DNA of 64,000 nucleotides from Bacteroidota bacterium (GCA_021796275.1 JAJYOI010000001.1:6803-70802), one strand, 5' to 3'; shown: positions 7,684 to 62,074, counted from the stretch's first letter. Made by a program: numbers and translations. The notes: generated from the sequence alone by a model not told the origin.

Positions 7684-9169
7684 AATAAAAGATATTTGAG
7701 AGTAATTCACGTTGACGAGTAAAATCCTTTCCTGCGCGAACCTCAGCGGTATTGAACGCACCCCACGCTATCGAATAGCCGCGGTTTGAAACAACAGCAA
7801 CAAGGCGATTCTCGTAAAACATTCCTGAAAGAAAATCATAGATGACCCGTCCGTGCACATTCTGCAAATCGGGATCAACCGGGGGCAACACATCAAATCG
7901 TTTCCAGATGGAATAAATCGGATGGTCGCTGGGAATTCTGCTCGTTGAAACATTTTCTCCCAGCAAGGCGCCGACGTTCGTCAGAAAATTATTGATCGCC
8001 TGCCAATTCTCGCTCTGCGTTGATGTCGAGCGTTCATCGGCAATAATCATACCGCCGTTACGAATAAAATCCGCCGCGTTCTTTTCCTGTTCAGGCGAAA
8101 ACTTCATCTGTCCCTCATCGGCAAGAATCATCAGAACATTAGACGCTTTGAGTTCCGCCGGCAGAAGATTTGTTTTCAAAAAAGAGAGCTTGAAGTTAGT
8201 CGTTTCTGCAAGGTAATCTTCAAGCGGTTTCATCAATTGTTCTGCGGGAAGCACATTCGTTGTACGAACAGCGAGCTTAATTTCTCCGGTAGGGCGGGCA
8301 TTCGGATCAAGCTGCGAGATTTTTCCGCGGCTGCCAGCCGACAAACTGTCCGTTCTTCCCGCCACGTATCCTTGTTGGGCATTGGGCGGTGTAAACGGAA
8401 CCCGTTTAAAAAAGAATGTCAGGTTCACAAATTCTGACGGCTGATTATTTTCATCATAACCGACAATAAAATTTTTCAGGTCGAGTTTCACTTGCTCCAC
8501 TTCATCGGTCAACGGATCGAACACAATCAATCCATCGCGGACATCGCCGCGAAAAACAGGCTTTCCCAAATAATGCACTGTCCGCCGAACAATCCCCATC
8601 CGGCTCTCAAAGACATCATCGTCAACTCCGGATGTTCCCTTAAGTTTTTTAAAATAATTTTCAAGACTATGGTATCGGCTGTTCTTTTCTTCTCGCCCAT
8701 AACTGTACAGAAAATCGCCGCGGTCGCTTGTGAGAAAACAGCTTTCAGGATCAAGATTGATTTTTGAGCCGGCATAATTGTACACTGTAATTTTAAAGAC
8801 CATGAAACGCTGCGGTGTGTACCCCAACACCGGGTCCACCCAATTTCCATACGTGAACGGATTCGTGGAGTATTGACCGGCCTGTGATTCCTGCGGAAAC
8901 TCAACATTGTTCAACTGATAATCGGTCATGTACTTCACTTCGACTTTGAAATCTTTCCGGTCATAAATAGCCGTCAGCCTATCGGAGCTGAGCCGGTACG
9001 AAGAATCATTCAAAGCGTTCATGAATGTTTCATTAGGAACCAATGTGTACTCGATTCGCTGCGGCGGAAACACAACATAATGGTACACCGGATCGCATCC
9101 GCCAAAAGTTGCCGTGAGAAAAAAAACGGCGGCTATAAAGACAAACGCTATGATGTTTCTACGGTACAC
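7652..9169 (-). CDS. Hypothetical exported or membrane-anchored protein of 505 aa. The C-terminal half may be glutamine-amidotransferase-like (DUF4159/ThuA-like).
   Basis: N-terminal TM IIAFVFIAAVFFLTATFGGC. C-terminal motif LMILADEGQMKFSPEQEKNAADFIRNGGMIIADE. The domain assignment is tentative. Confidence 0.5.
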   Translation of the reverse strand: MYRRNIIAFVFIAAVFFLTATFGGCDPVYHYVVFPPQRIEYTLVPNETFMNALNDSSYRLSSDRLTAIYDRKDFKVEVKYMTDYQLNNVEFPQESQAGQYSTNPFTYGNWVDPVLGYTPQRFMVFKITVYNYAGSKINLDPESCFLTSDRGDFLYSYGREEKNSRYHSLENYFKKLKGTSGVDDDVFESRMGIVRRTVHYLGKPVFRGDVRDGLIVFDPLTDEVEQVKLDLKNFIVGYDENNQPSEFVNLTFFFKRVPFTPPNAQQGYVAGRTDSLSAGSRGKISQLDPNARPTGEIKLAVRTTNVLPAEQLMKPLEDYLAETTNFKLSFLKTNLLPAELKASNVLMILADEGQMKFSPEQEKNAADFIRNGGMIIADERSTSTQSENWQAINNFLTNVGALLGENVSTSRIPSDHPIYSIWKRFDVLPPVDPDLQNVHGRVIYDFLSGMFYENRLVAVVSNRGYSIAWGAFNTAEVRAGKDFTRQRELLSNIFYYALESKKIKN

Positions 9170-9171
9170 TC

Positions 9172-12100
9172 TTAATATCCCGCGAAGATGGTAAAATAGA
9201 TCAGCGAAAACTGCGTGTTATTTATTTTATCAACGGGGCGCTGATAATTGTAGTCTGTAATCTTATAGCCGAAATCGATCACGATATTGTAACCGCTGTA
9301 TTGAGCTTTGTTTGTCATTGAAATCGCTGTCGTGGAAGCATTCACGTCGCCGACGCCGTCGCGCAAAAAGCGGTTCTTGACAAGAAGCGCATCAGTGAGA
9401 CCGAACAGGCCTGTTCCCTGAACTCCGAAATGAAGTTCTGTATTATTCGTTAAACGATAATCAACGCGAAGTATCGGGATCAGCGATTGCGTGTGCGCCA
9501 TGATCGTTGTCGAGGTTGAATTGTCGTCATAAACATTTGTCGACACAACCTTCAATGTCCGGATTTTGAACTGCGGACGAAATTGCAAACGATTCTCAAG
9601 TATTGAATATGTGTAGTCAATTTTGTTGACAAGTCCAAGCGAAGTGATTTCGCCGGCAAACTGTTCGTCAACAAGCGGCCCGAATTGAAGTTCCGCCAAT
9701 GTCGGCGCACCGACAACATACCTTTTGTTGGATTCAAACCGAATATTGTTTTCGATGTTCAAATTAGGAATTTGCGTGTACCGCGTTCCGACGTACACTG
9801 TATGAGAAAGGCTATTGCGGTACAAAAGCGGATCAATGACGTACTGCGGGGTCGGGTCATTCGATATCACTCCGCTGAATTGATATCCGTCATTCCGGAT
9901 ATTATCATGAACACGTTTGAGAGTGTAATAGAGATCCACACTTCCCAATCGTGGAGTAGATACGTTGTATGTCGCCTTAAAATAATTCACGTCGCTTTCT
10001 CCACCGCGTGCTAATGCCGTTTCACGAATGAAGCCGATAGCAAGCTGCATGTTCCGCATCGCTTCAAGCAAAGCAAATGCATGGTAGCCGTCGGCGTCGG
10101 GATTATAGGGGTAATCCGGATAGATGTCGTTTTCCTGATCGTCAATGACGCTGTTATTGTTCCAATCGTCCCCGGCTTCAAAAGCAGGTGGGTCGCTGTA
10201 GTACGTCAAGAAATCTTCAGTATAATCCGGCAGACCATTCGAGTTGCGGTCATCGTCCGGAATGCCGTCATGATCTTTGTCTTTCCCGGGAAAAATTCCC
10301 GCGTCGGGTTTGCGGATGATATCGTTCAAGCCGGTAAGCTCATTCACATTTTCACGGTAGCCCAATAAAAATGGATCAGGTTTTGAATTCAGCACATCGG
10401 TATTTCGCGGAAACGATGTGTTTGCCGTTGCATTATAAAAATAGAAGCCATCCTCCCACCGGTCATTGTCATCATTGTCGTCAACAAGATCATAGTTGGC
10501 ACCGCCGGCAAGCAAATTATCTGTTGTTACTTTTGAAATATCATCTGTGCTGTAACCGATTGCATCCGGCGGATTATACACAATCGAACCATCTTGGGCA
10601 AAGCTGCTGTAATAACTGTTTTCCAATGTGTAGAGATTCAGCGATGTGCTGTACCACGGCTCGATACGGTACCGTTCTCCGCCCAGCGTCAACCTCCCAA
10701 TTTTTTTTGTGCCGCGAAAGTAAAACGCTGTACCATCCTTTTCATTCCACGGCGCCGCTAAGAGCGGATATTTACTGTAGGTAGCACTGCGGTCAAATTC
10801 TCCTTCTACGTTAAAGCCATTCCAATCGAACTTAAAGTTCATTCCATAGACGGCCATACCGGTAGTCAAACCGTAGGTATAAGAAACCCACCGCTTGTTC
10901 GAAGCATCCTGCACATTTCCCATTGCACGCTCGACCGGAAAGAACGGTGTCGGTGTTCCGACAATTGTCGTATCCCAGTGATTCGGATACCGTGGATCGT
11001 TTGGAGAATCCGGATACTTATCTGATACAAGCACCCAGTCATGTGCCGCATCCATTGCATAATCGTTCGCAAGCAAAAACGAAACCGATACCGATTGCGT
11101 CCCATACGGCATGATGAAAGCATAAACAAGATTTGAGTTCCCTTTTAATTCCGTAGGGTACTGCGGCGGCGGCACAACTGCACCGTCCTTCATTGTGAAC
11201 TGCGTACGATAATTATCGTAGTTTGTGAAATTCTTGTAAATAGTTTGACCAGAAACCGGATCGGTAACACCGGTATTGACACCTTTTCCCGGAACATAAA
11301 TCTGAGAACTGAAACCGAAATCTTTGAAGACCCAATATTGAATCGGGTTGTTCAAATTCGTATTGAGTTGGCTGGGTACATCTCCGTTAATATTGACAAT
11401 CGCGCGTTGAACACCATTCACAACAATTTTTGGTTGAGCATAAATAATCGGGCCGGATTTATCAAGCGGAGAATCGTCACGGACACGGATGAAAATGACG
11501 CGCGGAATTGCGTCTGCTACAACGCCTTTGAGTGAAGCATTCTTGCTGTCAATGCTCGAGTGCCGTTGATTTTGATTCACGTACGTTGCACCGACGGTCA
11601 GCATATCGCCAAAGTCCGTTTCAAAATGTCCGCCGAACAAATACGTCGCCCAATCCCGCGGCCGGGCAATGGAATTCGGCAAACTCGATGCGTCAAAACG
11701 AATGCGGACAGGATCGGATTCACGCGAGACAAGAATTGTTCCGCGATATTTTTCTGTCGCGCCGTCCCACCGCATGCCGTTGAATCGTGCCTTGTCAAGC
11801 GTAAGCGAAGTGAACTTTGTGCGGATCGCCTCGCCCAACATAATGCGTGAATTAAACCCGCCGTATGCGTCGTTTCCAATTACCAAATTATTGAACCACA
11901 AATTATAGTACTTTGATTTCTGTACGTCACTTCCGCCAAGTACCGGATTAATGAATTCGCTTTGCGATTCATTCAATTCATAAATTGACAGCCCGTCGAC
12001 CAAAAAATTTCCGAAATTATCATAAATTTTTCTTTTATTGAACTGAATGCTGTAGTTCTCGTAATTGCGTCCGGAATAATTTGAATATCCTTCATCGCCT

Positions 12101-12189
12101 TTGATCTCGTCCCGGTTAATAAATTGCGCATAAAAAACATCAGTGCAGCTAAAAAACAGTATCAGCACAGACAGTAACTTACGATTCAC
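9172..12189 (-). CDS. Large outer-membrane protein of 1005 aa with Asp-rich calcium-binding (thrombospondin type-3-like) loops
   Basis: Signal peptide MNRKLLSVLILFFSCTDVFYAQ. DKDHDGIPDDDRNSNGLPDY...DDQENDIYPDYPYNPDADG matches the DxDxDGxxDxxD pattern. The C-terminal strands end in an aromatic residue (..FTIFAGY), which is typical of OM beta-barrels. Confidence 0.55.
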   Translation of the reverse strand: MNRKLLSVLILFFSCTDVFYAQFINRDEIKGDEGYSNYSGRNYENYSIQFNKRKIYDNFGNFLVDGLSIYELNESQSEFINPVLGGSDVQKSKYYNLWFNNLVIGNDAYGGFNSRIMLGEAIRTKFTSLTLDKARFNGMRWDGATEKYRGTILVSRESDPVRIRFDASSLPNSIARPRDWATYLFGGHFETDFGDMLTVGATYVNQNQRHSSIDSKNASLKGVVADAIPRVIFIRVRDDSPLDKSGPIIYAQPKIVVNGVQRAIVNINGDVPSQLNTNLNNPIQYWVFKDFGFSSQIYVPGKGVNTGVTDPVSGQTIYKNFTNYDNYRTQFTMKDGAVVPPPQYPTELKGNSNLVYAFIMPYGTQSVSVSFLLANDYAMDAAHDWVLVSDKYPDSPNDPRYPNHWDTTIVGTPTPFFPVERAMGNVQDASNKRWVSYTYGLTTGMAVYGMNFKFDWNGFNVEGEFDRSATYSKYPLLAAPWNEKDGTAFYFRGTKKIGRLTLGGERYRIEPWYSTSLNLYTLENSYYSSFAQDGSIVYNPPDAIGYSTDDISKVTTDNLLAGGANYDLVDDNDDNDRWEDGFYFYNATANTSFPRNTDVLNSKPDPFLLGYRENVNELTGLNDIIRKPDAGIFPGKDKDHDGIPDDDRNSNGLPDYTEDFLTYYSDPPAFEAGDDWNNNSVIDDQENDIYPDYPYNPDADGYHAFALLEAMRNMQLAIGFIRETALARGGESDVNYFKATYNVSTPRLGSVDLYYTLKRVHDNIRNDGYQFSGVISNDPTPQYVIDPLLYRNSLSHTVYVGTRYTQIPNLNIENNIRFESNKRYVVGAPTLAELQFGPLVDEQFAGEITSLGLVNKIDYTYSILENRLQFRPQFKIRTLKVVSTNVYDDNSTSTTIMAHTQSLIPILRVDYRLTNNTELHFGVQGTGLFGLTDALLVKNRFLRDGVGDVNASTTAISMTNKAQYSGYNIVIDFGYKITDYNYQRPVDKINNTQFSLIYFTIFAGY

Positions 12190-46561: not shown

Positions 46562-48844
46562 CTAAATCTTTGTCATGCGCAAGCGCAGAGAGTTGGATAC
46601 AACACTGACGGAACTAAATGCCATTGCGCCTGCGGCGATGATCGGATTCAACATTCCAAACGCCGCGAGAGGAATACCGATGACATTATAAATGAATGCC
46701 CAAAAAAGATTTTGCTTGATTGTTGAAAGAGTTTTTCCAGACAATTTCATCGCCTGCACAACGCCGTTAAGGTCGGATTTCATTAACGTGATATCGGCGG
46801 TTTCCATTGCGACATCAGTGCCGGTTCCCATCGCAATGCCAATGTCGGCTTGGGCAAGTGCCGGCGCGTCGTTGATGCCATCTCCGACCATTGCAACAAT
46901 TTTTCCCTCCTGCTGCAATTCTTTGATGCGGCTCGCTTTTTCACCGGGAAGAACTTCTGCAATCACGCGGCGGATGCCGACTTGCTGCGCTATGTTGTGC
47001 GCTGCTTGCCGTGAATCGCCGGTCAGCATCACAGTCTCTATCCCTATTTTCCCCAATGACGCAATTGCTGATTTTGAACTTGACTGAACTGTATCGGCAA
47101 CTGCAATAATTCCCGCCGATTTACCATTAACGGCAACAAACATCGGGGTTTTTCCTTCTGACTCAAATCGTGTTGCAGCACTTTCGCCATCAGATGTTTC
47201 GACTGAAAATTCCTGCATGAGTTTTCTATTTCCGACCGCAATCGCATTGCCGCCGATTGAGCCGACTATTCCCATGCCCGGATGTGACACAAAAGACTGA
47301 ACTTCAACAGCGGCAATTCCTTTCCCATTCACGAACGAAACAATTGCGGCGGCGAGAGGATGCTCTGATTTTTTTTCGACGGATGCTGTGAGGCGGAAAA
47401 ATTCATTCTCATCAATCCCGTCCATGAGTTTCACATCTGTCACGGACGGCTTCCCCATTGTCACCGTTCCGGTTTTATCGAAAACAACTGTTTGAACTTT
47501 ATGAAGACGCTCGAGACTATCGGCATTTTTAATAAGAACACCGCTCGAAGCGCCGCGGCCCGTTCCGACCATGATTGCCGTCGGCGTGGCAAGCCCAAGA
47601 GCGCACGGACACGCAATGATCAGCACCGCAATAAAATTTATCATCGCCGGAGTGAAACCAATTCCTCCCACAAAATACCAAAGCAAGAAAGTAACGACCG
47701 CAATTCCAATGACAATCGGAACAAACACAGAAGCAATTTTATCGGCAAGCGACTGGATCGGCGCTTTCGAACCTTGTGCTTCCTCCACCAATTTAATGAT
47801 GTGTGCGATCACCGTATCTTTTCCAATCGCCGCCGCACGGAATTCAATGCTTCCGTTGTTATTGATTGTTCCACCAACAACTTTATCGTCAATGTTTTTT
47901 TCAACCGGAATGCTTTCTCCCGTGATCATTGACTCATCAATTGAAGTGTAACCCTTCGTGACAATTCCATCAACCGGGATTTTTTCTCCGGGGCGCACAA
48001 GAACAATGTCGTTCACCATCACATCGCTAACAGATATATCACTTTCGATTCCTTTGCGAATTACACGTGCTGTTTTCGGCTGCAAACCGAGCAATTTTTT
48101 GATCGCATCCGATGTTTTGCTCTTTGCCCGCGCTTCAAAAACTCGCCCCATCAAAATCAAAGTAATAATTGTTGCCGCCGTGTCAAAATACACTGAGTGC
48201 ATTTCATTCTTGAAACCAAGCCAATGCGGGAAAAGCACGACGATAACACTATAAACGTACGCTACTCCGGTTCCGACAGCTACAAGTGTATTCATATCAG
48301 CAGAAAAATGTTTCACCAATCGCCATGCGGAAATATAAAATCGTTTGCCGGGAACAAACACAACGATCGTCGTCATCATCATAAGAAATTTATTTAGGTC
48401 GTCTATACTCACCGGCGATGCCTGTTTGAACCACTCCGTCATGCCTGCCATGCTCAACAGAACGAGCGGCACGGCGAGCGAAAGGCTGAAGATAAAATCT
48501 CGTTTCAATTCTTGATACGCTTTTTCCTGATGCGAAGGAGCACTGTGCGCTACACCGCCGCTTTCTTTTTTCTGAATATTTTCCTGTGGAATGACAAGTT
48601 TATACCCGGCTTCTTCCACCGCCGATGTAAGCTCCTCAATCTTGACTTGCGCCGGATCGAATGACAAAGAAACTTTTTCTGTTGCGAGATTAACGCTCGC
48701 TGCCTGAACGCCGTCAACTTTTTTCAGTGCCTTCTCAACGCGTAAAACACAACTTGCACATGTCATTCCTTCAACAGGAAGAGTCAATGTTTCAACCCGT
48801 TGAACGTCAGGCGTACTTTCTATTTCCCATTTTCCATCTTCCAT
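46562..48844 (-). CDS. copA: Copper-translocating P1B-type ATPase
   Basis: N-terminal HMA domain [11 protein letters not shown] motif ([11 protein letters not shown]). DKTGT phosphorylation site. GDGINDAP hinge. Confidence 0.9.
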
Positions 48845-48859
48845 TCTTTTACCAATCCA

Positions 48860-49069
48860 TCAATCCAAACCCACAAGCTTATATCCTGCTTCATCAATCG
48901 CGGCGGCGAGCTTTTCTTGCGAGACTTTCGTTTCGTCATACTGCACGCGCGCTTTCCCGATTTGAACATCTTCGACAGTAAGCCCCGCAATTGCCCCCAA
49001 TTCCTTTTTCACCGCCATCACACAATGACCGCAGCTCATTCCTTCAATTTTCAACTCACTCGATTTCAT
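48860..49069 (-). CDS. copZ: Copper chaperone (HMA domain)
   Basis: 69 aa, MKSSELKIEGMSCGHCVMAVKKEL. Confidence 0.8.
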   Translation of the reverse strand: MKSSELKIEGMSCGHCVMAVKKELGAIAGLTVEDVQIGKARVQYDETKVSQEKLAAAIDEAGYKLVGLD

Positions 49070-49197
49070 AACTGTATCTCCTTTCGAAAAATCATCAGTT
49101 CAGTGAATTACTTGATAATAATATAACATCTCTCCCTTGGTACAGCATTATATTTAAATGGAAATGTTTTATAGATTTCTGAGCCTCAAAAAAAGGG

Positions 49198-49854
49198 TTA
49201 TGATGCGACCTTATCAAGTGGCATTCGCTTTACCTGCTGAAGGTCACTTCGAGATTGAAAATTCCTTTGGGATTGTAATTCTTTAAAATATGTCGGTGTA
49301 AAACCGGTAACATCCTTAAATTGACCGGACAAATGCTGCACGCTGCTGTAACCCATCCGATATGCAATTTCGCTAAGCGTTAGTTCGTCGTAAACAAGCA
49401 GCTCTTTTACCCGCTCGATTCTTTGTAGAATGATAAACTTTTCAATCGTTACGTTCTCGATGGAAGAAAAAAGCTTGCTCAAATAACTGTAATCGTGCCC
49501 GACTTGCTCCGCGATGTACTTCGAGAAATTCACATTCATCTCACCGTCACTATCCGAATGGTGGATGCGATTGATAATCAGTGTCTTGATTTTTTCAATA
49601 AGCTTCATTCGCTGATCATCAATCAATTCGAAACCGTTCTCATGCAAAACGCGCCGGACTTTTTCAAGATCAATCTTCTTTGAACCGTTCGCAACGATAG
49701 CTTCACCGAGCCGAATGCTTCGCACGTCAAGCCCAAGATTTGCCAATTCTTCGCGCACAACACGAATGCATCTATCGCACACCATATTTTTGATGTACAA
49801 AGCAGTTGTGGTTACCAGCCTTTGTTTTTTCAATTTTTTCATGGCGCTTTTCAA
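49198..49854 (-). CDS. AraC-family transcriptional regulator with an N-terminal HMA-like metal-binding domain. It is a putative copper-responsive regulator.
   Basis: N-terminus TALYIKNMVCDRCIRVVREELANLGLDV (MxCxxC with a beta-alpha-beta-beta-alpha-beta pattern). The C-terminal AraC HTH is ..LTLSEIAYRMGYSSVQHLSGQFKDVTGFTPTYF. Confidence 0.75.
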   Translation of the reverse strand: MKSAMKKLKKQRLVTTTALYIKNMVCDRCIRVVREELANLGLDVRSIRLGEAIVANGSKKIDLEKVRRVLHENGFELIDDQRMKLIEKIKTLIINRIHHSDSDGEMNVNFSKYIAEQVGHDYSYLSKLFSSIENVTIEKFIILQRIERVKELLVYDELTLSEIAYRMGYSSVQHLSGQFKDVTGFTPTYFKELQSQRNFQSRSDLQQVKRMPLDKVAS

Positions 49855-49911: not shown

Positions 49912-49940
49912 TTGCTTCTCTTCATCATCTTTGGTAAATT
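49912..49940 (+). promoter_or_regulatory. Candidate sigma-70 promoter TTGCTT-N17-TAAATT upstream of the phosphohexomutase operon
   Basis: Hexamers at 49912-49917 and 49935-49940 with a spacer of 17 nt. The ATG at 49976 is about 30 nt downstream of the predicted TSS. Confidence 0.35.
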
Positions 49941-49975: not shown

Positions 49976-51340
49976 ATGTCTCTCATGGTCAGCATTTCAG
50001 GCATTCGCGGCGTTGTTGGCGAAAGTCTTACGCCGGAAACCATTGTTAAATATGTTGCGGCGTACGCCGAGTATTGCAATCGGGGAACAATCGTTGTCGG
50101 CAGAGACGGGCGCATTACCGGAAAATCTGTCGCCGATATTGTCACTTCAACATTGCTGCAAGCAGGGTGCAATGTAATTTTCATCGGCGTTTGTCCGACG
50201 CCAACAGTGCAGCTTGCGGTGGAACAACTTCACGCCGCCGGCGGAATTTCAATTACGGCAAGCCACAATCCGATGCAATGGAACGGCTTAAAATTTATGG
50301 CAACCACCGGCATGTTTCTTAACGCTGAAGAAAATAAAAAGTTCTGGGCAATTGCAGAACGGGGCAATTTCGGCTTTGCGGCATGGGATAAGCAGGGAAA
50401 ATTCGAAAACGATGCGACATGGATTGACCGCCATATCCAAAAAATTATCAGCCTGCCCTACATCAACCTCGAAGCTGTCCGCTCAAAGAAATTCAAAGTC
50501 GTTGTTGACTGCGATAATGCCGCGGGCTGTGTCATCGTTCCAAAACTGCTGCGCCAATTTGAATGCAGGATCATTCCGCTGAATTGTGAGCTGACCGGAA
50601 TTTTTTCTCACACACCGGAACCGATTCCTGAAAACCTCACACAACTCGCAGCAAAAGTTGTTGAAGAAAAAGCCGATCTCGGCATTGCTGTTGATCCGGA
50701 TGTAGACCGGCTTGTTCTGATCAACGAAAAGGGCGAACCGTTCGTCGAAGAATACACCATCGCTTCGGCAGTGAATTTCGTTCTGAAAAAAGAGATGGAA
50801 CTCGGAAAGAAAGACCAGCGCGTAGTTGTCAATCTTTCAACAACACGCGCGGTTGACGATATTGCTACAAAGTTCGGCGCATCGGTTGCTCGAACGCCAG
50901 TCGGCGAAATCAATGTCGCTGCAAAGATGAAAGAAATCGGCGCTGTAGTTGGCGGCGAAGGAAGCGGAGGCGTAATTCTCCGCGAAGTCCATTTGGGAAG
51001 GGATGCTATGGTCGGCATCGGATTGTTTCTCCAATTCCTTACCGAATTCGGCGGGAAAACATCAGAACTGAAAGCGAGCCTGCCTCAATACACGATTGTG
51101 AAGAATAAAATTGAACTTGGGACACTTCAGCCTGATATAATTCTGAAAAAACTGAACGAAAAATATTCCCGTACTGAAAAAGCGAATTCTGACGACGGCT
51201 TGAAAATTGATTTCGCATCATCGTGGGTGCATTTGCGAAAATCAAACACCGAGCCGATCATTCGCATCATTGCAGAAGCAAAAACCCGCGACGAAGCCTC
51301 CTCGCTTGTTGAACGATTCAAGAAAGAAATTCTGGCATGA
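49976..51340 (+). CDS. Alpha-D-phosphohexomutase (phosphoglucosamine-mutase / phosphomannomutase-like)
   Basis: Active-site loop ITASHNPMQWNGLKF (phospho-Ser). Metal-binding DPDVDR. Start at MSLMVSISGIRGVVG (ATG 49976). The ORF-track start is an upstream TTG. Confidence 0.8.
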   Translation: MSLMVSISGIRGVVGESLTPETIVKYVAAYAEYCNRGTIVVGRDGRITGKSVADIVTSTLLQAGCNVIFIGVCPTPTVQLAVEQLHAAGGISITASHNPMQWNGLKFMATTGMFLNAEENKKFWAIAERGNFGFAAWDKQGKFENDATWIDRHIQKIISLPYINLEAVRSKKFKVVVDCDNAAGCVIVPKLLRQFECRIIPLNCELTGIFSHTPEPIPENLTQLAAKVVEEKADLGIAVDPDVDRLVLINEKGEPFVEEYTIASAVNFVLKKEMELGKKDQRVVVNLSTTRAVDDIATKFGASVARTPVGEINVAAKMKEIGAVVGGEGSGGVILREVHLGRDAMVGIGLFLQFLTEFGGKTSELKASLPQYTIVKNKIELGTLQPDIILKKLNEKYSRTEKANSDDGLKIDFASSWVHLRKSNTEPIIRIIAEAKTRDEASSLVERFKKEILA

Positions 51341-52656
51341 GTAAAATTCAAACAAAAAGTTTCGCTGTCACACTTTCAATATTCCTCATCCTGTTTTTTT
51401 CTTCAGCTATATCGTCCGTTAAGCCGAAGCTGCTTTGGTTTGATGCCACGGCGAATTTCGAACGGCTGAGCTATCCGGATTCCATCCGTTATTATTTGCA
51501 GAAAGCGCATTCTCTTGGCTTTACAGATGCAGTAGTTGATGTAAAACCGATTACCGGCGAAGTGCTCTACCGGAGTGTTGTCGCGCCGCAAATGAAAGAA
51601 TGGAACGGTTTCGCGCGACCCGATACTTTTGATTTTCTTTCAACATTCATTACAGAAGCGCATAAGCAAAAGATGCGCGTTCACGCCTCGCTCAACATTT
51701 TTTCCGGAGGACATAACTATATCGACCGCGGAATCGTTTATACCTCTCACCCCGAATGGGCATCCATCGTCTATACCGATTCCGGAACATTTCCAATCAC
51801 AAAAGTAAAGGCAAAATATTCGGCAATGCTCAATCCGGCAAATCCCGAAATCCAAAATTACGAAATCGAAATTCTCAAAGAACTTGTTTCAAAATATCCA
51901 CACCTCAATGGCATCATTCTTGACCGCGTCCGTTACGACGGAATTTGTGCCGACTTCAGCCCGCTTTCGCGCTCACTTTTCGAACACTCTCTTGAGAAAA
52001 AGATCGAACATTTCCCCGAAGATATTTTTTCATGGAAAAAAGATTCCGCAGGCAATACGTATCGTGCCGACGGAAGATATTTCAAACAATGGTTGGAATG
52101 GCGTGCACGCGTTATTACAGGATTTATGAAGAAAGCGCGCGCCGCGGTCAAGAACATCAATCCGAAAATTTCCTTTGGCGACTATACCGGATCTTGGTAT
52201 CCGATTTATTATGAAGTTGGTGTAAACTGGGCGAGCAAAAAGTATGACCCGTCAAAAAAATATTCATGGGCAACACCGACATATAAAAACACCGGCTACG
52301 CAGAATTGCTTGACCTTTTCTCTTCCGGAAATTATTATTTTGAAGTGACAAAAAAAGAAGTGCTTTCAAAAAACGAAACCGGCACAACAGAATCCGGGCG
52401 CGTTGGCAAAAAAGAATATTGGTACAGTGTCGAAGGCGCATGTGAAATTACAAAAGAAGTGCTGAAGAATGCGGTTCCGGTGTACGGCGGATTATATGTT
52501 GACCAGTACAACGGACACCCTGAGCAATTTGAAAAAGCTATTGCTATGTGTTTAAAAAAATCCGACGGGCTGATGATTTTTGATATTGTGCATATTATCA
52601 ACAATCATTGGTGGGATGTGCTGCAACGTGGGATTCAAATGGGAGAATCGAAATGA
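51337..52656 (+). CDS. Secreted GHL10/DUF187-family glycoside-hydrolase-like protein (YddW/YngK-like)
   Basis: Signal peptide. LLWFDAT...GFTDAVVDVKP...EAHKQKMRVHASLN...HPEW...LNPANPEIQNY...GIILDRVRY matches the GHL10 TIM-barrel-like pattern. ATGA start/stop overlap with the upstream gene. Confidence 0.6.
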   Translation: MSKIQTKSFAVTLSIFLILFFSSAISSVKPKLLWFDATANFERLSYPDSIRYYLQKAHSLGFTDAVVDVKPITGEVLYRSVVAPQMKEWNGFARPDTFDFLSTFITEAHKQKMRVHASLNIFSGGHNYIDRGIVYTSHPEWASIVYTDSGTFPITKVKAKYSAMLNPANPEIQNYEIEILKELVSKYPHLNGIILDRVRYDGICADFSPLSRSLFEHSLEKKIEHFPEDIFSWKKDSAGNTYRADGRYFKQWLEWRARVITGFMKKARAAVKNINPKISFGDYTGSWYPIYYEVGVNWASKKYDPSKKYSWATPTYKNTGYAELLDLFSSGNYYFEVTKKEVLSKNETGTTESGRVGKKEYWYSVEGACEITKEVLKNAVPVYGGLYVDQYNGHPEQFEKAIAMCLKKSDGLMIFDIVHIINNHWWDVLQRGIQMGESK

Positions 52657-52931
52657 GGCTCTGCAAAGTTACAGGAACAATCGTTTCAACTCAAAAAAAT
52701 GAAACGCTCAGGCAGTACAAGATTCTCATTGTTCAGCCAATTGATTTGCAGGGAAATTTCATTGAGAGGGATGTGCTGGCAATTGATACGGTTGATGCCG
52801 GCATCGGCGATACAGTGCTTATCATCCAAGAAGGCGCCGGCGCGCAGCAAGCGCTGAAACGGAAAGATGTTCCGGTTCACACTGTGGTTGTTGCGGTGGT
52901 CGATGGGCTTGACATTGCGGGGAACAAGTAA
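52653..52931 (+). CDS. EutN/CcmL/PduN-family protein (bacterial microcompartment vertex pentamer homolog). It is an orphan.
   Basis: MRLCKVTGTIVSTQKNETLRQYKILIVQPIDLQGN...VLAIDTVDAGIGDTVLIIQEGAGAQQAL...VHTVVVAVVDGLDI aligns along its length with CcmL/EutN (KV.GTVVSTQK..L.G.KLL.V...D..G.......A.D..GAG.G..VL...GS.AR.A). 92 aa. The ATG overlaps the upstream TGA (ATGA). Confidence 0.7.
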   Translation: MRLCKVTGTIVSTQKNETLRQYKILIVQPIDLQGNFIERDVLAIDTVDAGIGDTVLIIQEGAGAQQALKRKDVPVHTVVVAVVDGLDIAGNK

Positions 52932-52934
52932 GAG

Positions 52935-54047
52935 ATGCCGAAAAAAGAAATTAACATTCACGACCTTCTTCGCCTTGCAATGATTCCGGGCATAGGTGCA
53001 AATCGTCTTCGTGCGCTTGTCAGTCATTTTGGCTCGCCGACGGAAGTTTTGCACGCATCACCGCGTGAGCTTGTACATGTCGAAGGCATAGAAAAGAAGC
53101 TCGCTTCAGCGATTGCACATTATCCGACAAGCAGTGAAGCCGCAGATCGCCAATTATCGCTTCTCAATAAAGTCAACGGACATATCATCACATTGTGGGA
53201 TGATGAATATCCGGAATATCTCCGACGCATTTACGACCCGCCGCCGATTCTTTTTGCTCGCGGCAGACTTCTTCCTGCCGACAAATTTTCCATTGCGGTT
53301 GTTGGTACACGCCGGCCGACGGCGTACGGAAAACTTATTGCAGAACGATTCGCTCGTGAACTTGCTGAACAAGGATTAACTATCATCAGCGGATTAGCGC
53401 GCGGCATAGATACAATTGCGCATCACGCAACACTTAAATCTGGCAGAAGAACAATCGCCGTAATCGGTTCAAGCATCGATATTATTTATCCGCCTGAGAA
53501 CAAGAAGCTGGTTGAAATGATTGAGGCGAATGAAAACGGCGCCGTTGTTTCGGAATTTTTCATGGATACAAAGCCCGATCCCGGAAATTTCCCGCGCCGC
53601 AATCGCATTATCAGCGGGATGTCCCTTGGTACATTGATCGTTGAAACTGCCGAAAACGGCGGCGCAATGATCACTGCATCAACCGCGCTTGACCAAAACC
53701 GGGAATTATTTTGCATCCCGGGCAACATCACAGAGAAATACAGCGCCGGTACAAACAGGCTTATCCGCGATGGACATGCAAAGCTTGTCCAGAATGTCGA
53801 AGACATTCTTTCGGAACTCGAATCGGTGCTGCGCCCGATTCTCAAAACGACAGCACCAAAACAAGTAGCTCAGTTGACTGCTTTCGAGCAAAAAATTATT
53901 GACACCCTCACCTCTGACCCTGTACACATTGATACGATTGCAGAACGCTCGAATTTTTCGACCTCCGACGCGTTGGTTAATCTTCTGAGCTTGGAATTTA
54001 AAGGCATTGTCAAACAGCTTCCGGGAAAAATGTTTGTGAGAATGTAA
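52935..54047 (+). CDS. dprA: DNA-processing protein DprA (Smf)
   Basis: N-terminal SAM/HhH region, then the Rossmann-like DprA domain GLARGIDTIAHHATL...TIAVIGSSIDIIYPPEN. A C-terminal winged-helix-like tail. Confidence 0.85.
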   Translation: MPKKEINIHDLLRLAMIPGIGANRLRALVSHFGSPTEVLHASPRELVHVEGIEKKLASAIAHYPTSSEAADRQLSLLNKVNGHIITLWDDEYPEYLRRIYDPPPILFARGRLLPADKFSIAVVGTRRPTAYGKLIAERFARELAEQGLTIISGLARGIDTIAHHATLKSGRRTIAVIGSSIDIIYPPENKKLVEMIEANENGAVVSEFFMDTKPDPGNFPRRNRIISGMSLGTLIVETAENGGAMITASTALDQNRELFCIPGNITEKYSAGTNRLIRDGHAKLVQNVEDILSELESVLRPILKTTAPKQVAQLTAFEQKIIDTLTSDPVHIDTIAERSNFSTSDALVNLLSLEFKGIVKQLPGKMFVRM

Positions 54048-54111
54048 GCCGCCTTTCTTCTCATCTTTTCTTCATTACTATTGCCGCTCTTTTCTTTGTC
54101 GCCTTGTGCCT

Positions 54112-54139
54112 GCCTGTCCGGTAGACAGGCGCCATTTTT
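54112..54139 (+). terminator. Rho-independent terminator after dprA (gcctgtc-cggta-gacaggc then GCCATTTTT)
   Basis: 7-bp GC-rich stem, 5-nt loop and T5 run. Confidence 0.6.
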
Positions 54140-54190
54140 AATTTGACCAAAAATGCGTATCTTATTGGAAATTTCGTTGTGATTCTCACG

Positions 54191-59842: not shown

Positions 59843-62074
59843 TTATTTTTTGCTGCTAAAGTCAACATTGAAAACTATATTGGCAGAAACAACAAGATGA
59901 ATTTTGTTGGTAGTATTGAACGAAACAGGCTGACCGGTATTGCCAGCAGTTTTCAATGCAATCTGAACTGTCATAAAATCTGCTGACGTAAACTTCTCAA
60001 CATCGGCAGGAGTAAGGCTAACAAAACTGCCGCTTGTTCCCGTTCCTCCGCCGGTAAAATAGCGGGAACTGTCGGCAATAATTGGAGGATCACCATTATG
60101 CGGAAGTGAAATAAGCAGGTTTGTCGTATCCGGCTTCGACGAATCTGCCGCCATTGCCTTAAACATTGCAGCGCTCACATCAAGCTGGAATGGAAAATCG
60201 TTCTCAATCTTGAAAAAGATGGAACCGTTATCCACTTTTGAATAGGTGCTTTTATTTATATTTTGTTTCCCCAACGCCACGGTATCGCGCAGCACGCCAT
60301 TCATAATGCCGACACGCACAGGAAAAGAGAAATCTACTGAAGTGTAAATGCTGTCTCCGACTTTCACCGTGCCGCTACTCAGTGAATCCAAATACACATC
60401 CATTGGATCTATGACGGCATTTCCATCGACCAATAATTTATCCGGCAGGCGTCCGTTTCTGCCAAAAAAGCTGGAAAGAAAACGAGCGACGCCGGTGCCT
60501 TTCGTAAAAACAATTTGAGCAGAATCGCCGGGCAGTATCCTAAACGCATTTCGTCCCGGCGAATGCGGAACTTCCAGAGAATCGCCGCGATTGCCGTCTT
60601 TATCTAAAGCAATGATTGTCATGTTCAGATCAGTCGGAAACAATCCTGTGCTCAAAATATTAACGGTGATCGTTACAGAATCGAACGAAATACTGTCAGC
60701 CCTAAATTTATCTCCCAAATCGCCGATTGATGCAGGCATTTCAAAATGAATCGTCTCCGGCGTTGGTTTCACTTTCCCGCGAACATTGCTGATCGTATAC
60801 GGAATTGTGTTTCCTTGAAGATCCTTATCGGGATATATTCCTGCAACAACTGAATCATCTTTTGAAATCACTCGCTTGTCGGTCGTTCGAACCAAGGTCT
60901 TGATGCTGAGCGAGAAGTGAACCACTTTAGTTGACAAGGTGTCAATTTCTGCGCCGATAGTATCTATGTGCTGGGACTGAAGCACATAATCCTGCATCAA
61001 AACAGGCATATCGTATGTGCTCTTTCCACTCACAATCACTGAATCGCTGGGCGCACCAATGCCTCCCTCTTTCAATTTAAATGGCTCATTCGTTGCTTTA
61101 TCAATGAATTCATCCAGCTTAAAGTCAACCACAATGTCAGTTGCTATATCATTCACAATTTTGATATGAAAACTTCCGCCGCTGAACTCAGCACGAAACA
61201 CGCCAGTGGAATCATCCAATTTCTGAACCGAGTCGCGTACATTCACTAACGGATAATCGCCTGTCAATTGCACTTTCGCAGAATTAAGCCCGGCATTCGT
61301 AATCTGCATTACCGCTGCAATATGATCGGTTGATTGAATTGTTTTGCCGTGGATCTGATCCGTTTGAAGCGTGAAGCTCATGTGCATCTTCGCATCCATT
61401 CTGATTCCTGCAAGATCGGATGTTGCCGATTGCGAAGTGTTCGGGCTGATGACGCCGGCAAAATTGAACGTTGCCACAACGGTATTGTCTGAATCGTTCA
61501 CAATTCTGATTCCAGACGGAAAACTGATGCCAAACGAAAACGTGTTCGTGACCGTCAATGTCATTGTACCAGTCTCAAAAATCATCCAGTCGTATGTTGC
61601 TGAAGGATTGCCAATGTCTATCGGAGCCGGAGTAACAGTAGTATCATTCCCCGGATACGGAATTGGGTTACCTAAAAATGTCGGCGGATCTTGACCGAAC
61701 ATATCTTTAAATGTCGCCGTAAATCCGGGAAGCGCAGGAATATCCAACGGAACCACTCCCAGCTTATTTGTCACTTGACCTTGAGCCGGATTCAATGTTG
61801 GAATCTGTATTCCGGTCGGATTATTCTTTACCGACGACGGCCGGTAAATGACATTGATGCCCGAGGATGTATCAAACTTCGGATCCTTCTTGATCATGTC
61901 GGCAAAAGTGAATGTGCGGTCAAGCAGCGGAATTGTAAGCTGCGTTTTCCACGTCGGAGCAACAGGCTCAAGAGGCGCTTTGACACATTCGTATGAAAGC
62001 GGAAGCAAGCTCACAAGAAGAAGATAGAATATTCCCTTTTTGAGCTTCGTCTTTCGACTGAGCGATAGTGGCAT
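59843..62074 (-). CDS. Large secreted, possibly lipidated beta-rich surface protein of 743 aa
   Basis: N-terminus MPLSLSRKTKLKKGIFYLLLVSLLPLSYEC is signal-like with a Cys. The mature part is Thr/Ser/Asn/Gly-rich, consistent with Ig-like or beta-sandwich repeats. It is co-oriented with, and 45 nt upstream of, the FadL-like gene. Confidence 0.5.
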   Translation of the reverse strand: MPLSLSRKTKLKKGIFYLLLVSLLPLSYECVKAPLEPVAPTWKTQLTIPLLDRTFTFADMIKKDPKFDTSSGINVIYRPSSVKNNPTGIQIPTLNPAQGQVTNKLGVVPLDIPALPGFTATFKDMFGQDPPTFLGNPIPYPGNDTTVTPAPIDIGNPSATYDWMIFETGTMTLTVTNTFSFGISFPSGIRIVNDSDNTVVATFNFAGVISPNTSQSATSDLAGIRMDAKMHMSFTLQTDQIHGKTIQSTDHIAAVMQITNAGLNSAKVQLTGDYPLVNVRDSVQKLDDSTGVFRAEFSGGSFHIKIVNDIATDIVVDFKLDEFIDKATNEPFKLKEGGIGAPSDSVIVSGKSTYDMPVLMQDYVLQSQHIDTIGAEIDTLSTKVVHFSLSIKTLVRTTDKRVISKDDSVVAGIYPDKDLQGNTIPYTISNVRGKVKPTPETIHFEMPASIGDLGDKFRADSISFDSVTITVNILSTGLFPTDLNMTIIALDKDGNRGDSLEVPHSPGRNAFRILPGDSAQIVFTKGTGVARFLSSFFGRNGRLPDKLLVDGNAVIDPMDVYLDSLSSGTVKVGDSIYTSVDFSFPVRVGIMNGVLRDTVALGKQNINKSTYSKVDNGSIFFKIENDFPFQLDVSAAMFKAMAADSSKPDTTNLLISLPHNGDPPIIADSSRYFTGGGTGTSGSFVSLTPADVEKFTSADFMTVQIALKTAGNTGQPVSFNTTNKIHLVVSANIVFNVDFSSKK

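Follow-up and report, generated by a model that had tools for sequence, protein, structure and literature searches.

Why does a gene for a shell vertex protein of bacterial microcompartments (BMCs) stand in a housekeeping operon, with no other shell gene beside it? The question is raised by a 64,000-nucleotide stretch of DNA from a Bacteroidota bacterium (GCA_021796275.1, JAJYOI010000001.1:6803-70802), which is called here, at its full length, the window. At positions 52653-52931 of its plus strand lies an open reading frame (ORF) of 92 amino acids, a solitary member of the EutN/CcmL family of vertex pentamer subunits (BMC-P, PF03319), in one operon with glmM, the gene of a phosphoglucosamine mutase, and dprA, the gene of DNA processing protein A (Smf). 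An original prediction from the same DNA had recognised the ORF as a vertex homolog and had proposed a non-canonical role for a vertex pentamer without a shell. Our analysis leads to a different answer: the protein is probably the third of a triplet of BMC-P proteins of FRAG1 type, dispersed from the other two, expressed from a housekeeping operon and capping shells whose hexamer genes would lie elsewhere.

The assignment to the family is the firmest part of this answer. Residues 1-84 of the product align with positions 1-83 of the 83 positions of the PF03319 EutN_CcmL profile at 88.1 bits (gathering cut-off 25; E = 5.8e-25), a score that puts homology far beyond chance and bears out the claim of a full-length vertex homolog. 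The nearest solved proteins by sequence are CcmL (4N8X, E = 5.7e-15, about 40% identity), other CcmLs, EutN and the BMC-P of the Haliangium (HO) shell. The predicted closeness to CcmL therefore holds in so far as 4N8X is the best solved match, yet the protein reaches 72.8 bits on the CcmL equivalog model NF053795, where the cut-off is 125. With 54.1 bits on the EutN equivalog model NF011992 (cut-off 118) and 33.1 bits on the CsoS4 equivalog model (the cut-offs for the three models range from 118 to 125), it is by its scores no equivalog of CcmL, EutN or CsoS4. An AlphaFold2 model built from 49 close orthologs had a pLDDT of 55.7 and was discarded; a more diverse alignment gave a monomer model with a pLDDT of 83.1. 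When this model was compared with the PDB by Foldseek, the best 47 matches were all BMC-P proteins (TM-score 0.80-0.87, rmsd 1.5-2.3 Å), spanning CcmL, EutN, GrpN, the HO BMC-P, RMM and CsoS4, and the next matches had E > 0.04. CcmL structures (4N8X, 2QW7, 4JVZ, 6OWF) are the best match in fold (TM-score 0.82-0.85) as well as in sequence, but the resemblance is at the level of the family only: neither carboxysome genes (ccmK/M/N, RuBisCO) nor eut genes are present in the window, and the source is a heterotroph-type, Ignavibacteria-like metagenome-assembled genome (MAG). The ORF encodes a genuine, functional vertex-type BMC-P, and its subunits would be expected to form pentamers.

Purifying selection on the protein is strong. 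Among seven syntenic genes compared across 19-25 orthologous loci, in which synonymous sites are saturated, BMC-P has the lowest median nonsynonymous divergence (dN 0.144), followed by HslV (0.165), HslU (0.192), RpoN (0.207), GlmM (0.217), DprA (0.273) and DUF3109 (0.367); against the closest relatives its dN/dS is 0.04-0.09. Isolation from all other shell genes is what would be expected of a decaying remnant of a lost microcompartment locus that has no present function. This explanation is extremely improbable and is refuted by the selection data: both the lowest median dN and the low dN/dS speak against decay; moreover, every relative has an intact ORF of full length, the protein is better conserved than GlmM, RpoN, HslV and HslU, and in one lineage (L042) the gene is duplicated in tandem.

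The isolation itself is real within the DNA that was searched. Six-frame phmmer searches of the window with three BMC-H sequences revealed no BMC-H/T domain and no second BMC-P (best E 0.27), a six-frame search with a BMC-H profile HMM had a best E of 0.15, and neither aldehyde dehydrogenase, PTAC, RuBisCO nor aldolase was found among the Pfam-scanned ORFs of the window, in agreement with the claim that the 64 kb hold no shell hexamer or BMC signature enzyme. The window proteins have identical copies in GCA_027371395.1, and identical contigs, which reach 9.6 kb beyond the left end of the window and about 2.7 kb beyond its right end, add no shell genes, so that about 76 kb around the BMC-P gene are free of any other shell gene.

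Still, 64 kb are too little to conclude that the pentamer has no shell. The catalogue of Sutter et al. (2021, Nat Commun 12:3809) describes FRAG1 (57 loci) as a 'shell protein only' type that is most prominent in Ignavibacteria and whose parts are scattered over as many as six places in the genome; these parts are the three BMC-P of a triplet, two BMC-H and, in some cases, PduS and PduT as a pair. In the consolidated set the triplet consists of members of the green, grey and orange clades, one of the two BMC-H proteins has a long C-terminal extension, and encapsulation peptides were not found (Sutter et al. 2021). Besides Ignavibacteria, the taxa listed are Kryptonia, Bacteroidetes, Chlorobi and Rhodothermaeota (Sutter et al. 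2021, Supplementary Data 2), and Ignavibacteria MAGs supply the entries marked FRAG1 (sat) for BMC-P, BMC-H and PduT-like proteins in the trees of the catalogue. Satellite loci had been defined by Axen et al. (2014), and their Table S2 shows that BMC-H is indeed present in cultured relatives whose BMC-P genes are dispersed: Melioribacter roseus has five BMC-H, one BMC-T and seven BMC-P in five loci, four being satellite or satellite-like, and Chloroherpeton thalassium has two BMC-H, no BMC-T and three BMC-P in three loci, all of them satellite-like. Ignavibacterium album, with two BMC-H, no BMC-T and no BMC-P in one satellite-like locus (same table), has BMC-H without BMC-P, which is the opposite of what the window shows.

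Because FRAG1 and satellite shell genes have already been catalogued in this group, the known scheme would lead one to expect a solitary BMC-P gene in an Ignavibacteria-like genome. The likeness extends to the taxon range, to shell genes that are dispersed singly and have no recognisable BMC enzymes adjoining, and to the catalogue's 'satellite' BMC-P singletons; the gene of the window is single and dispersed in this way, and so are those of 75 distinct relatives, which belong, where they carry names, to Ignavibacteria-like or Bacteroidota MAGs. What sets the gene of the window apart is that the accessible part of the 2021 catalogue makes no mention of a BMC-P locked into a glmM-BMC-P-dprA operon. 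A mutase or DprA beside BMC-P is likewise not mentioned in what could be consulted of either catalogue (Axen et al. 2014; Sutter et al. 2021), and our search of the literature on DprA together with microcompartments, or on BMC-P triplets, gave nothing beyond the catalogues of 2014 and 2021. The anchoring of a BMC-P between glmM and dprA thus appears not to have been described before. Shell genes are kept off the main locus also in many beta-cyanobacterial genomes, in the case of ccmK3/ccmK4, presumably for separate regulation; there, however, hexamer genes are concerned and the main locus is clear, whereas here the gene is that of a pentamer, its operon is a housekeeping one, and the type has no known main locus.

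How constant this position is can be seen from the relatives. There are 483 close homologues in the protein database, the best 120 of which are 72-100% identical to the window protein and 88-107 amino acids long; those that carry names come from Ignavibacteriales, Ignavibacteria, Ignavibacteriaceae or Bacteroidota MAGs. When one genome was scanned for each species, 25 genomes proved to have an ortholog of 65-87% identity, and wherever the flanks were long enough the order was glmM-BMC-P-dprA-DUF3109-rpoN-hslV-hslU. One of the orthologs (80% identity, same synteny) is found on a complete 4.24-Mb chromosome, OY970334.1. A metagenome scan contributed 80 further loci. At 65% identity or more (51 distinct sequences), glmM stands upstream in 31/32 and dprA downstream in 38/38, and neither BMC-H/T nor other BMC-P types flank the gene (0/44 for each). 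Among the 25 distinct sequences of 53-64% identity the counts are 6/9 for glmM and 15/16 for dprA, again with neither BMC-H/T nor other BMC-P types in the flanks (0/19 each). The situation is reversed at 52% identity or less (35 distinct sequences), where glmM is upstream in 1/17 and dprA downstream in 0/25, BMC-H/T is present in 14 of 28 and other BMC-P types in 18 of 28. A stricter recount of adjacency over the 75 distinct sequences at least 53% identical, whose flanks amount to about 0.7 Mb of examined DNA, gave 36/40 for glmM-BMC-P (spacer 0-2830 nt), 52/53 for BMC-P-dprA (median gap about 29 nt) and 30/44 for dprA-DUF3109.

The distant relatives indicate where the solitary gene came from. 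The sequences of 52% identity or less are found in compact operons of the order class II aldolase-BMC-H-BMC-P-BMC-P-BMC-P, and one of them in a complete SPU locus (L039), which consists of BMC-H, a CsoS1D-like BMC-T, a second BMC-H, two BMC-P, a PduT-like BMC-T, AldDh, two BMC-P, RpiB and DeoC. In both arrangements the counterpart of the window protein is the BMC-P that comes last, the third in the aldolase operons. Neighbour-joining trees, which are only descriptive at about 90 residues, unite the solitary sequences in one clade that groups with this third or last type (L038_P3, L039_P4), and the solitary clade and the third type also have in common an insertion of one residue ahead of the conserved EG. 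What we take to be the HO (Haliangium) BMC-P sequence groups with a different BMC-P type. The sister group of the solitary clade comprises the BMC-P of the SPU locus (L039), a BMC-P-DeoC pair (L086, 1276-2404) and two arrangements of an Arch_GlmM-type mutase, BMC-P and DeoC, both on short metagenome contigs (L091, 12-1670; L107, 5-1963). The third BMC-P of the aldolase operons and SPU loci shares with the window protein 40-52% identity, the same length, the insertion and 19 conserved positions; it differs in standing beside BMC-H and two other BMC-P types, whereas the window gene is solitary and has His76, Gln66 and Ala81. Judged by alignment and tree topology, the solitary clade is descended from BMC-P genes of shell operons. 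The BMC-P genes of Rubricoccaceae (43-45% identity), which are solitary too, were considered as orthologs and set aside, since CcmL is just as close to the window protein as they are. One of them, in a Rubricoccaceae MAG (L032, 7594-11854), lies between an AAA ATPase gene and a dihydrolipoamide-dehydrogenase-like gene (lpd), and fits the Rubricoccus FRAG1 (sat) entry in the legible part of the published tree (Sutter et al. 2021).

The conserved residues of the clade bear on its function. Nineteen positions are at least 90% conserved both in 38 shell-operon relatives and in 63 sequences of the solitary clade: V6, G8, V11, T13, K15, K23, L25, P29, A43, D45, V47, A49, G50, G52, D53, V55, L56, G61 and D84. 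Several of them lie in the segment D48-A49-G50-I51-G52-D53, the counterpart of the GAGxG(E/D) motif, in which A49, G50 and D53 are invariant in the solitary clade and G52 is kept in 94%, the same as in the shell-operon relatives. The acidic residue that ends motifs of the GAGxGE type forms a salt bridge with the Arg of the (A/P)RPH motif of BMC-H at the interface between pentamer and hexamer (2026 review, PMC13370225). Because the residues conserved in shell-operon relatives are kept, including those of the hexamer-contact motif, a canonical capping role is favoured over the non-canonical one that had been proposed, and the protein would be expected to interact with hexamers. The loss of Arg from an 'SSAR' segment was also considered, as a sign of divergence; shell-operon relatives of the same BMC-P type likewise have no conserved Arg there, and the candidate was dropped.

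Several observations weigh against the assignment to a FRAG1 triplet with a capping role. First, no BMC-H/T gene was detected in the window together with the adjoining 12 kb or so, nor in the approximately 0.7 Mb of flanks of the 75 relatives; when BMC-H sequences from the Bacteroidota SPU locus L039 were used as seeds, the best 120 of more than 8000 matches were of Bacteroidales or Lentimicrobiaceae type. Second, membership in the triplet is something we infer: neither the window BMC-P nor its relatives match the accessions, locus tags (DCP63, Ignavibacteria names) or tree entries that are legible in the 2021 catalogue. The legible FRAG1 entries for Ignavibacteria BMC-P belong to 'viridian3' of the green clade, which also holds main-locus BMC-P proteins of HO type from related deltaproteobacteria, with 96 amino acids, the chain length of 5V74, and the sequence taken for the HO BMC-P falls in our tree with another type than the window protein. 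Third, the solitary clade has residues of its own: His76 (codon at 52878-52880) is present in 61 of the 63 sequences, where 30 of the 38 shell-operon relatives have Asp; Gln66 is fixed in all 63, and Ala81 replaces the Gly of the relatives. Fourth, the adjacency of BMC-P and dprA is more persistent than that of dprA and DUF3109, and could reflect more than inherited synteny.

In an alternative explanation, the clade has been taken over for a purpose independent of any shell. The protein would then be a small oligomer with an OB (oligonucleotide/oligosaccharide-binding) fold that performs a housekeeping role with DprA in DNA processing and/or with GlmM as a means of control, and it would cap no shell. 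A position in a housekeeping operon that is fixed in 75 distinct relatives, with no shell gene in the flanks, agrees with this, and so do the survival of the BMC-P-dprA pair where both glmM-BMC-P and dprA-DUF3109 are broken, the residues invariant in the clade (Gln59 in addition to the three named above), the lowest dN among the neighbours, and the relation of the BMC-P OB fold to nucleic-acid-binding domains. On the other hand, all residues conserved in at least 90% of the shell-operon relatives have been retained, AGxGD included, which is unexpected of a protein that has no hexamer partners; scattered shell genes are documented for this very taxon; synteny among related genomes may persist without functional coupling; and subclades that have glmM only or dprA only indicate that neither neighbour is obligatory. 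Taken together, we regard such an exaptation as possible but unlikely. If it were true, no other PF03319 protein would have been the first to serve outside a shell, the fold could no longer be assumed to be unique to microcompartments, and His76, Gln66 and Ala81 would mark the new function. Complete genomes of this clade in which hexamer genes are missing would mean that the vertex fold is used here, for the first time, independently of a shell. Such a clade would also be relevant to the question why three BMC-P paralogs occur in many microcompartments though twelve pentamers suffice.

Which neighbours belong to the conserved unit? In the window the operon begins with glmM (49976-51340, plus strand), which encodes an alpha-D-phosphohexomutase with PGM_PMM domains I-IV; its longest ORF starts from TTG at 49931, and the ATG at 49976 is the likely start. 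The gene upstream of it is on the opposite strand. The generic phosphohexomutase of the original prediction can be refined to an archaeal-type GlmM, with 524.2 bits on TIGR03990 (Arch_GlmM equivalog; cut-off 439), and the other two neighbours are confirmed as predicted. The second gene (51337-52656, plus strand) encodes a glycoside-hydrolase-like protein with GHL10 (PF02638, E = 6e-19) and DUF4985 (PF16373, E = 1.3e-45) regions and a signal-peptide-like N-terminus, and dprA (52935-54047, plus strand; PF02481, E = 8.4e-77; DprA winged-helix and HhH domains) comes last. The ATGA overlaps of start and stop codons are present as described, at 51337-51340 between glmM and GHL10 and at 52653-52656 between GHL10 and BMC-P, and dprA begins 3 nt after the BMC-P stop. 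A terminator-like GC-rich hairpin with a T tract (54111-54141, plus strand; hairpin 54111-54131) follows 64 nt past the dprA stop. It has an 8-bp stem with five GC pairs, followed by CCATTTTTAA, and probably marks the end of the glmM-GHL10-BMC-P-dprA transcription unit, although it is a consensus match only and such sites are no commoner in this region than in shuffled sequence.

Whether the order phosphohexomutase-GHL10-EutN-dprA is conserved in relatives had been named as a check on the original prediction. The linkage holds for dprA (52/53) and for the phosphohexomutase (36/40) and fails for GHL10, which lies between glmM and BMC-P in only two lineages among about 75 distinct relatives, that of the window (L001/L002) and L047; the closest relative, L019, with 87% identity in BMC-P and 93% in GlmM, has no GHL10 at this position. 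Because GHL10 is restricted to two lineages, because other lineages have other inserts in the same spacer or none, and because there are subclades with glmM-BMC-P but no dprA (L033, L034) and with BMC-P-dprA but no glmM (L069 type), the ancestral and conserved unit is, on this distribution, glmM-BMC-P-dprA, in which GHL10 appears as an incidental, lineage-specific, later insertion. The spacer between glmM and BMC-P is an insertion hot spot: it is occupied by GHL10 in the window (51341-52652) and in L047 (8704-9975), by a 363-amino-acid ORF with no Pfam matches in L048 (3379-4470) and by DUF5674 and DinB_2 genes in L076 (4193-6866). In L042 (JGI contig Ga0209516_1000029) two solitary BMC-P copies stand in tandem between glmM and dprA, at 8634-8900 and 10001-10267, with identities of 76% and 78% to the protein of the window. 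On chromosome OY970334.1 (L003/L012, 8552-9959) glmM is in two pieces, and the called gene has only 247 amino acids; in a near-identical contig of another assembly (L004, 4761-6167) it is intact with 454 amino acids, and the split is probably an assembly frameshift.

The patchy occurrence of GHL10 also bears on the role originally proposed for the pentamer, namely that it serves as cap or scaffold for an assembly that involves the secreted GHL10 protein or the competence machinery of its neighbours. The ATGA that couples GHL10 to BMC-P, the dprA start 3 nt further on and the second occurrence of GHL10 in L047 would agree with it. However, a cytoplasmic scaffold for GHL10 is unlikely because the N-terminus of GHL10 is signal-peptide-like, which predicts export, and BMC-P has no such sequence. 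With GHL10 missing from the closest relative and unrelated genes filling the same spacer elsewhere, we consider this proposal very improbable; its GHL10 part is largely refuted by the synteny.

The mutase deserves separate consideration. It could form an enzyme-shell module with BMC-P, an old satellite of a sugar-phosphate or nucleic-acid-scavenging (SPU-like) microcompartment, in which the archaeal-type mutase supplies or consumes the phosphosugar of the organelle and dprA, through DNA uptake or processing, is linked thematically. The sister-group arrangements point in this direction: mutase-BMC-P-DeoC, BMC-P-DeoC and, in the SPU locus, a last BMC-P followed by RpiB and DeoC. So does the lineage in which glmM-BMC-P is kept with no dprA downstream, and SPU microcompartments have been proposed to catabolise deoxyribose phosphate derived from DNA. 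Against this, the mutase lies well over the trusted cut-off for GlmM (524 vs 439 bits; about 515 bits in L033, L034 and L036), its gene belongs to a housekeeping block that includes rpoN and hslVU, the kind of place where an essential cell-wall enzyme would be expected, and it has no terminal extension that resembles an encapsulation peptide. In addition, the glmM-BMC-P spacer tolerates unrelated inserts of up to 2.8 kb, the BMC-P-dprA subclade has no mutase, and the two mutase-BMC-P-DeoC loci are short contigs placed by a neighbour-joining tree on about 90 residues. An enzyme-shell module is thus rather doubtful here, and the sister-group loci offer a weak hint that fragmented microcompartments handle sugar phosphates. 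A class II aldolase near BMC-P-dprA in loci of the L069 type was examined as possible cargo and rejected; it has 217 amino acids and no extension, and belongs to a housekeeping block (ddl/mgsA/MTHFR) on the other strand.

Returning to the dispersed FRAG1 triplet, we propose the following course of events. In an ancestor of this group, a BMC-P gene would have left a shell operon of the type aldolase or sugar-phosphate enzymes-BMC-H-BMC-P-BMC-P-BMC-P and then become fixed between glmM and dprA, where it would be co-transcribed from the promoter of the housekeeping operon and coupled in part at translation. Five subunits would assemble into a truncated-pyramid pentamer, and such pentamers would close the twelve vertices of shells whose walls are built of BMC-H and BMC-T proteins encoded at other loci, presumably of this genome. 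Contact between pentamer and hexamer would be made through the conserved AGxG(D/E) motif, by a salt bridge to the Arg of (A/P)RPH in BMC-H. The location in a housekeeping operon implies, if this explanation is correct, that at least this part of the shell is produced constitutively, together with GlmM, and not inducibly. It would provide one concrete detail for the FRAG microcompartments, an enigmatic class with no known cargo or function: a member of the triplet is hard-wired into the glmM-BMC-P-dprA operon, and its evolution is slower than that of the essential genes beside it. The same operon could then serve as a conserved genomic anchor for locating the rest of the system.

The remainder of the window is of a general character. 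Downstream of dprA are DUF3109, rpoN, hslV and hslU; elsewhere there are genes for surface proteins of the type IX secretion system (T9SS), glycosyltransferases, trp genes, ribosomal protein S1, ispH, cmk, a phosphate transporter and copA/copZ. Rfam and tRNA scans of the window gave no matches. Two ORFs on the minus strand have no Pfam match, one of 1005 amino acids at 9172-12189 and one of 743 amino acids at 59843-62074; the latter adjoins a DUF5723 gene in relatives too (L001, L003, L004). The copper genes form a module at 46562-49854 (minus strand), which consists of copA (760 amino acids), a copZ-like gene for a heavy-metal-associated (HMA) domain protein of 69 amino acids, and a gene for an AraC-type regulator with an HMA-like CxxC segment at its N-terminus. 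The module is divergent from glmM and is kept in several relatives (L009, L018, L019, L022).

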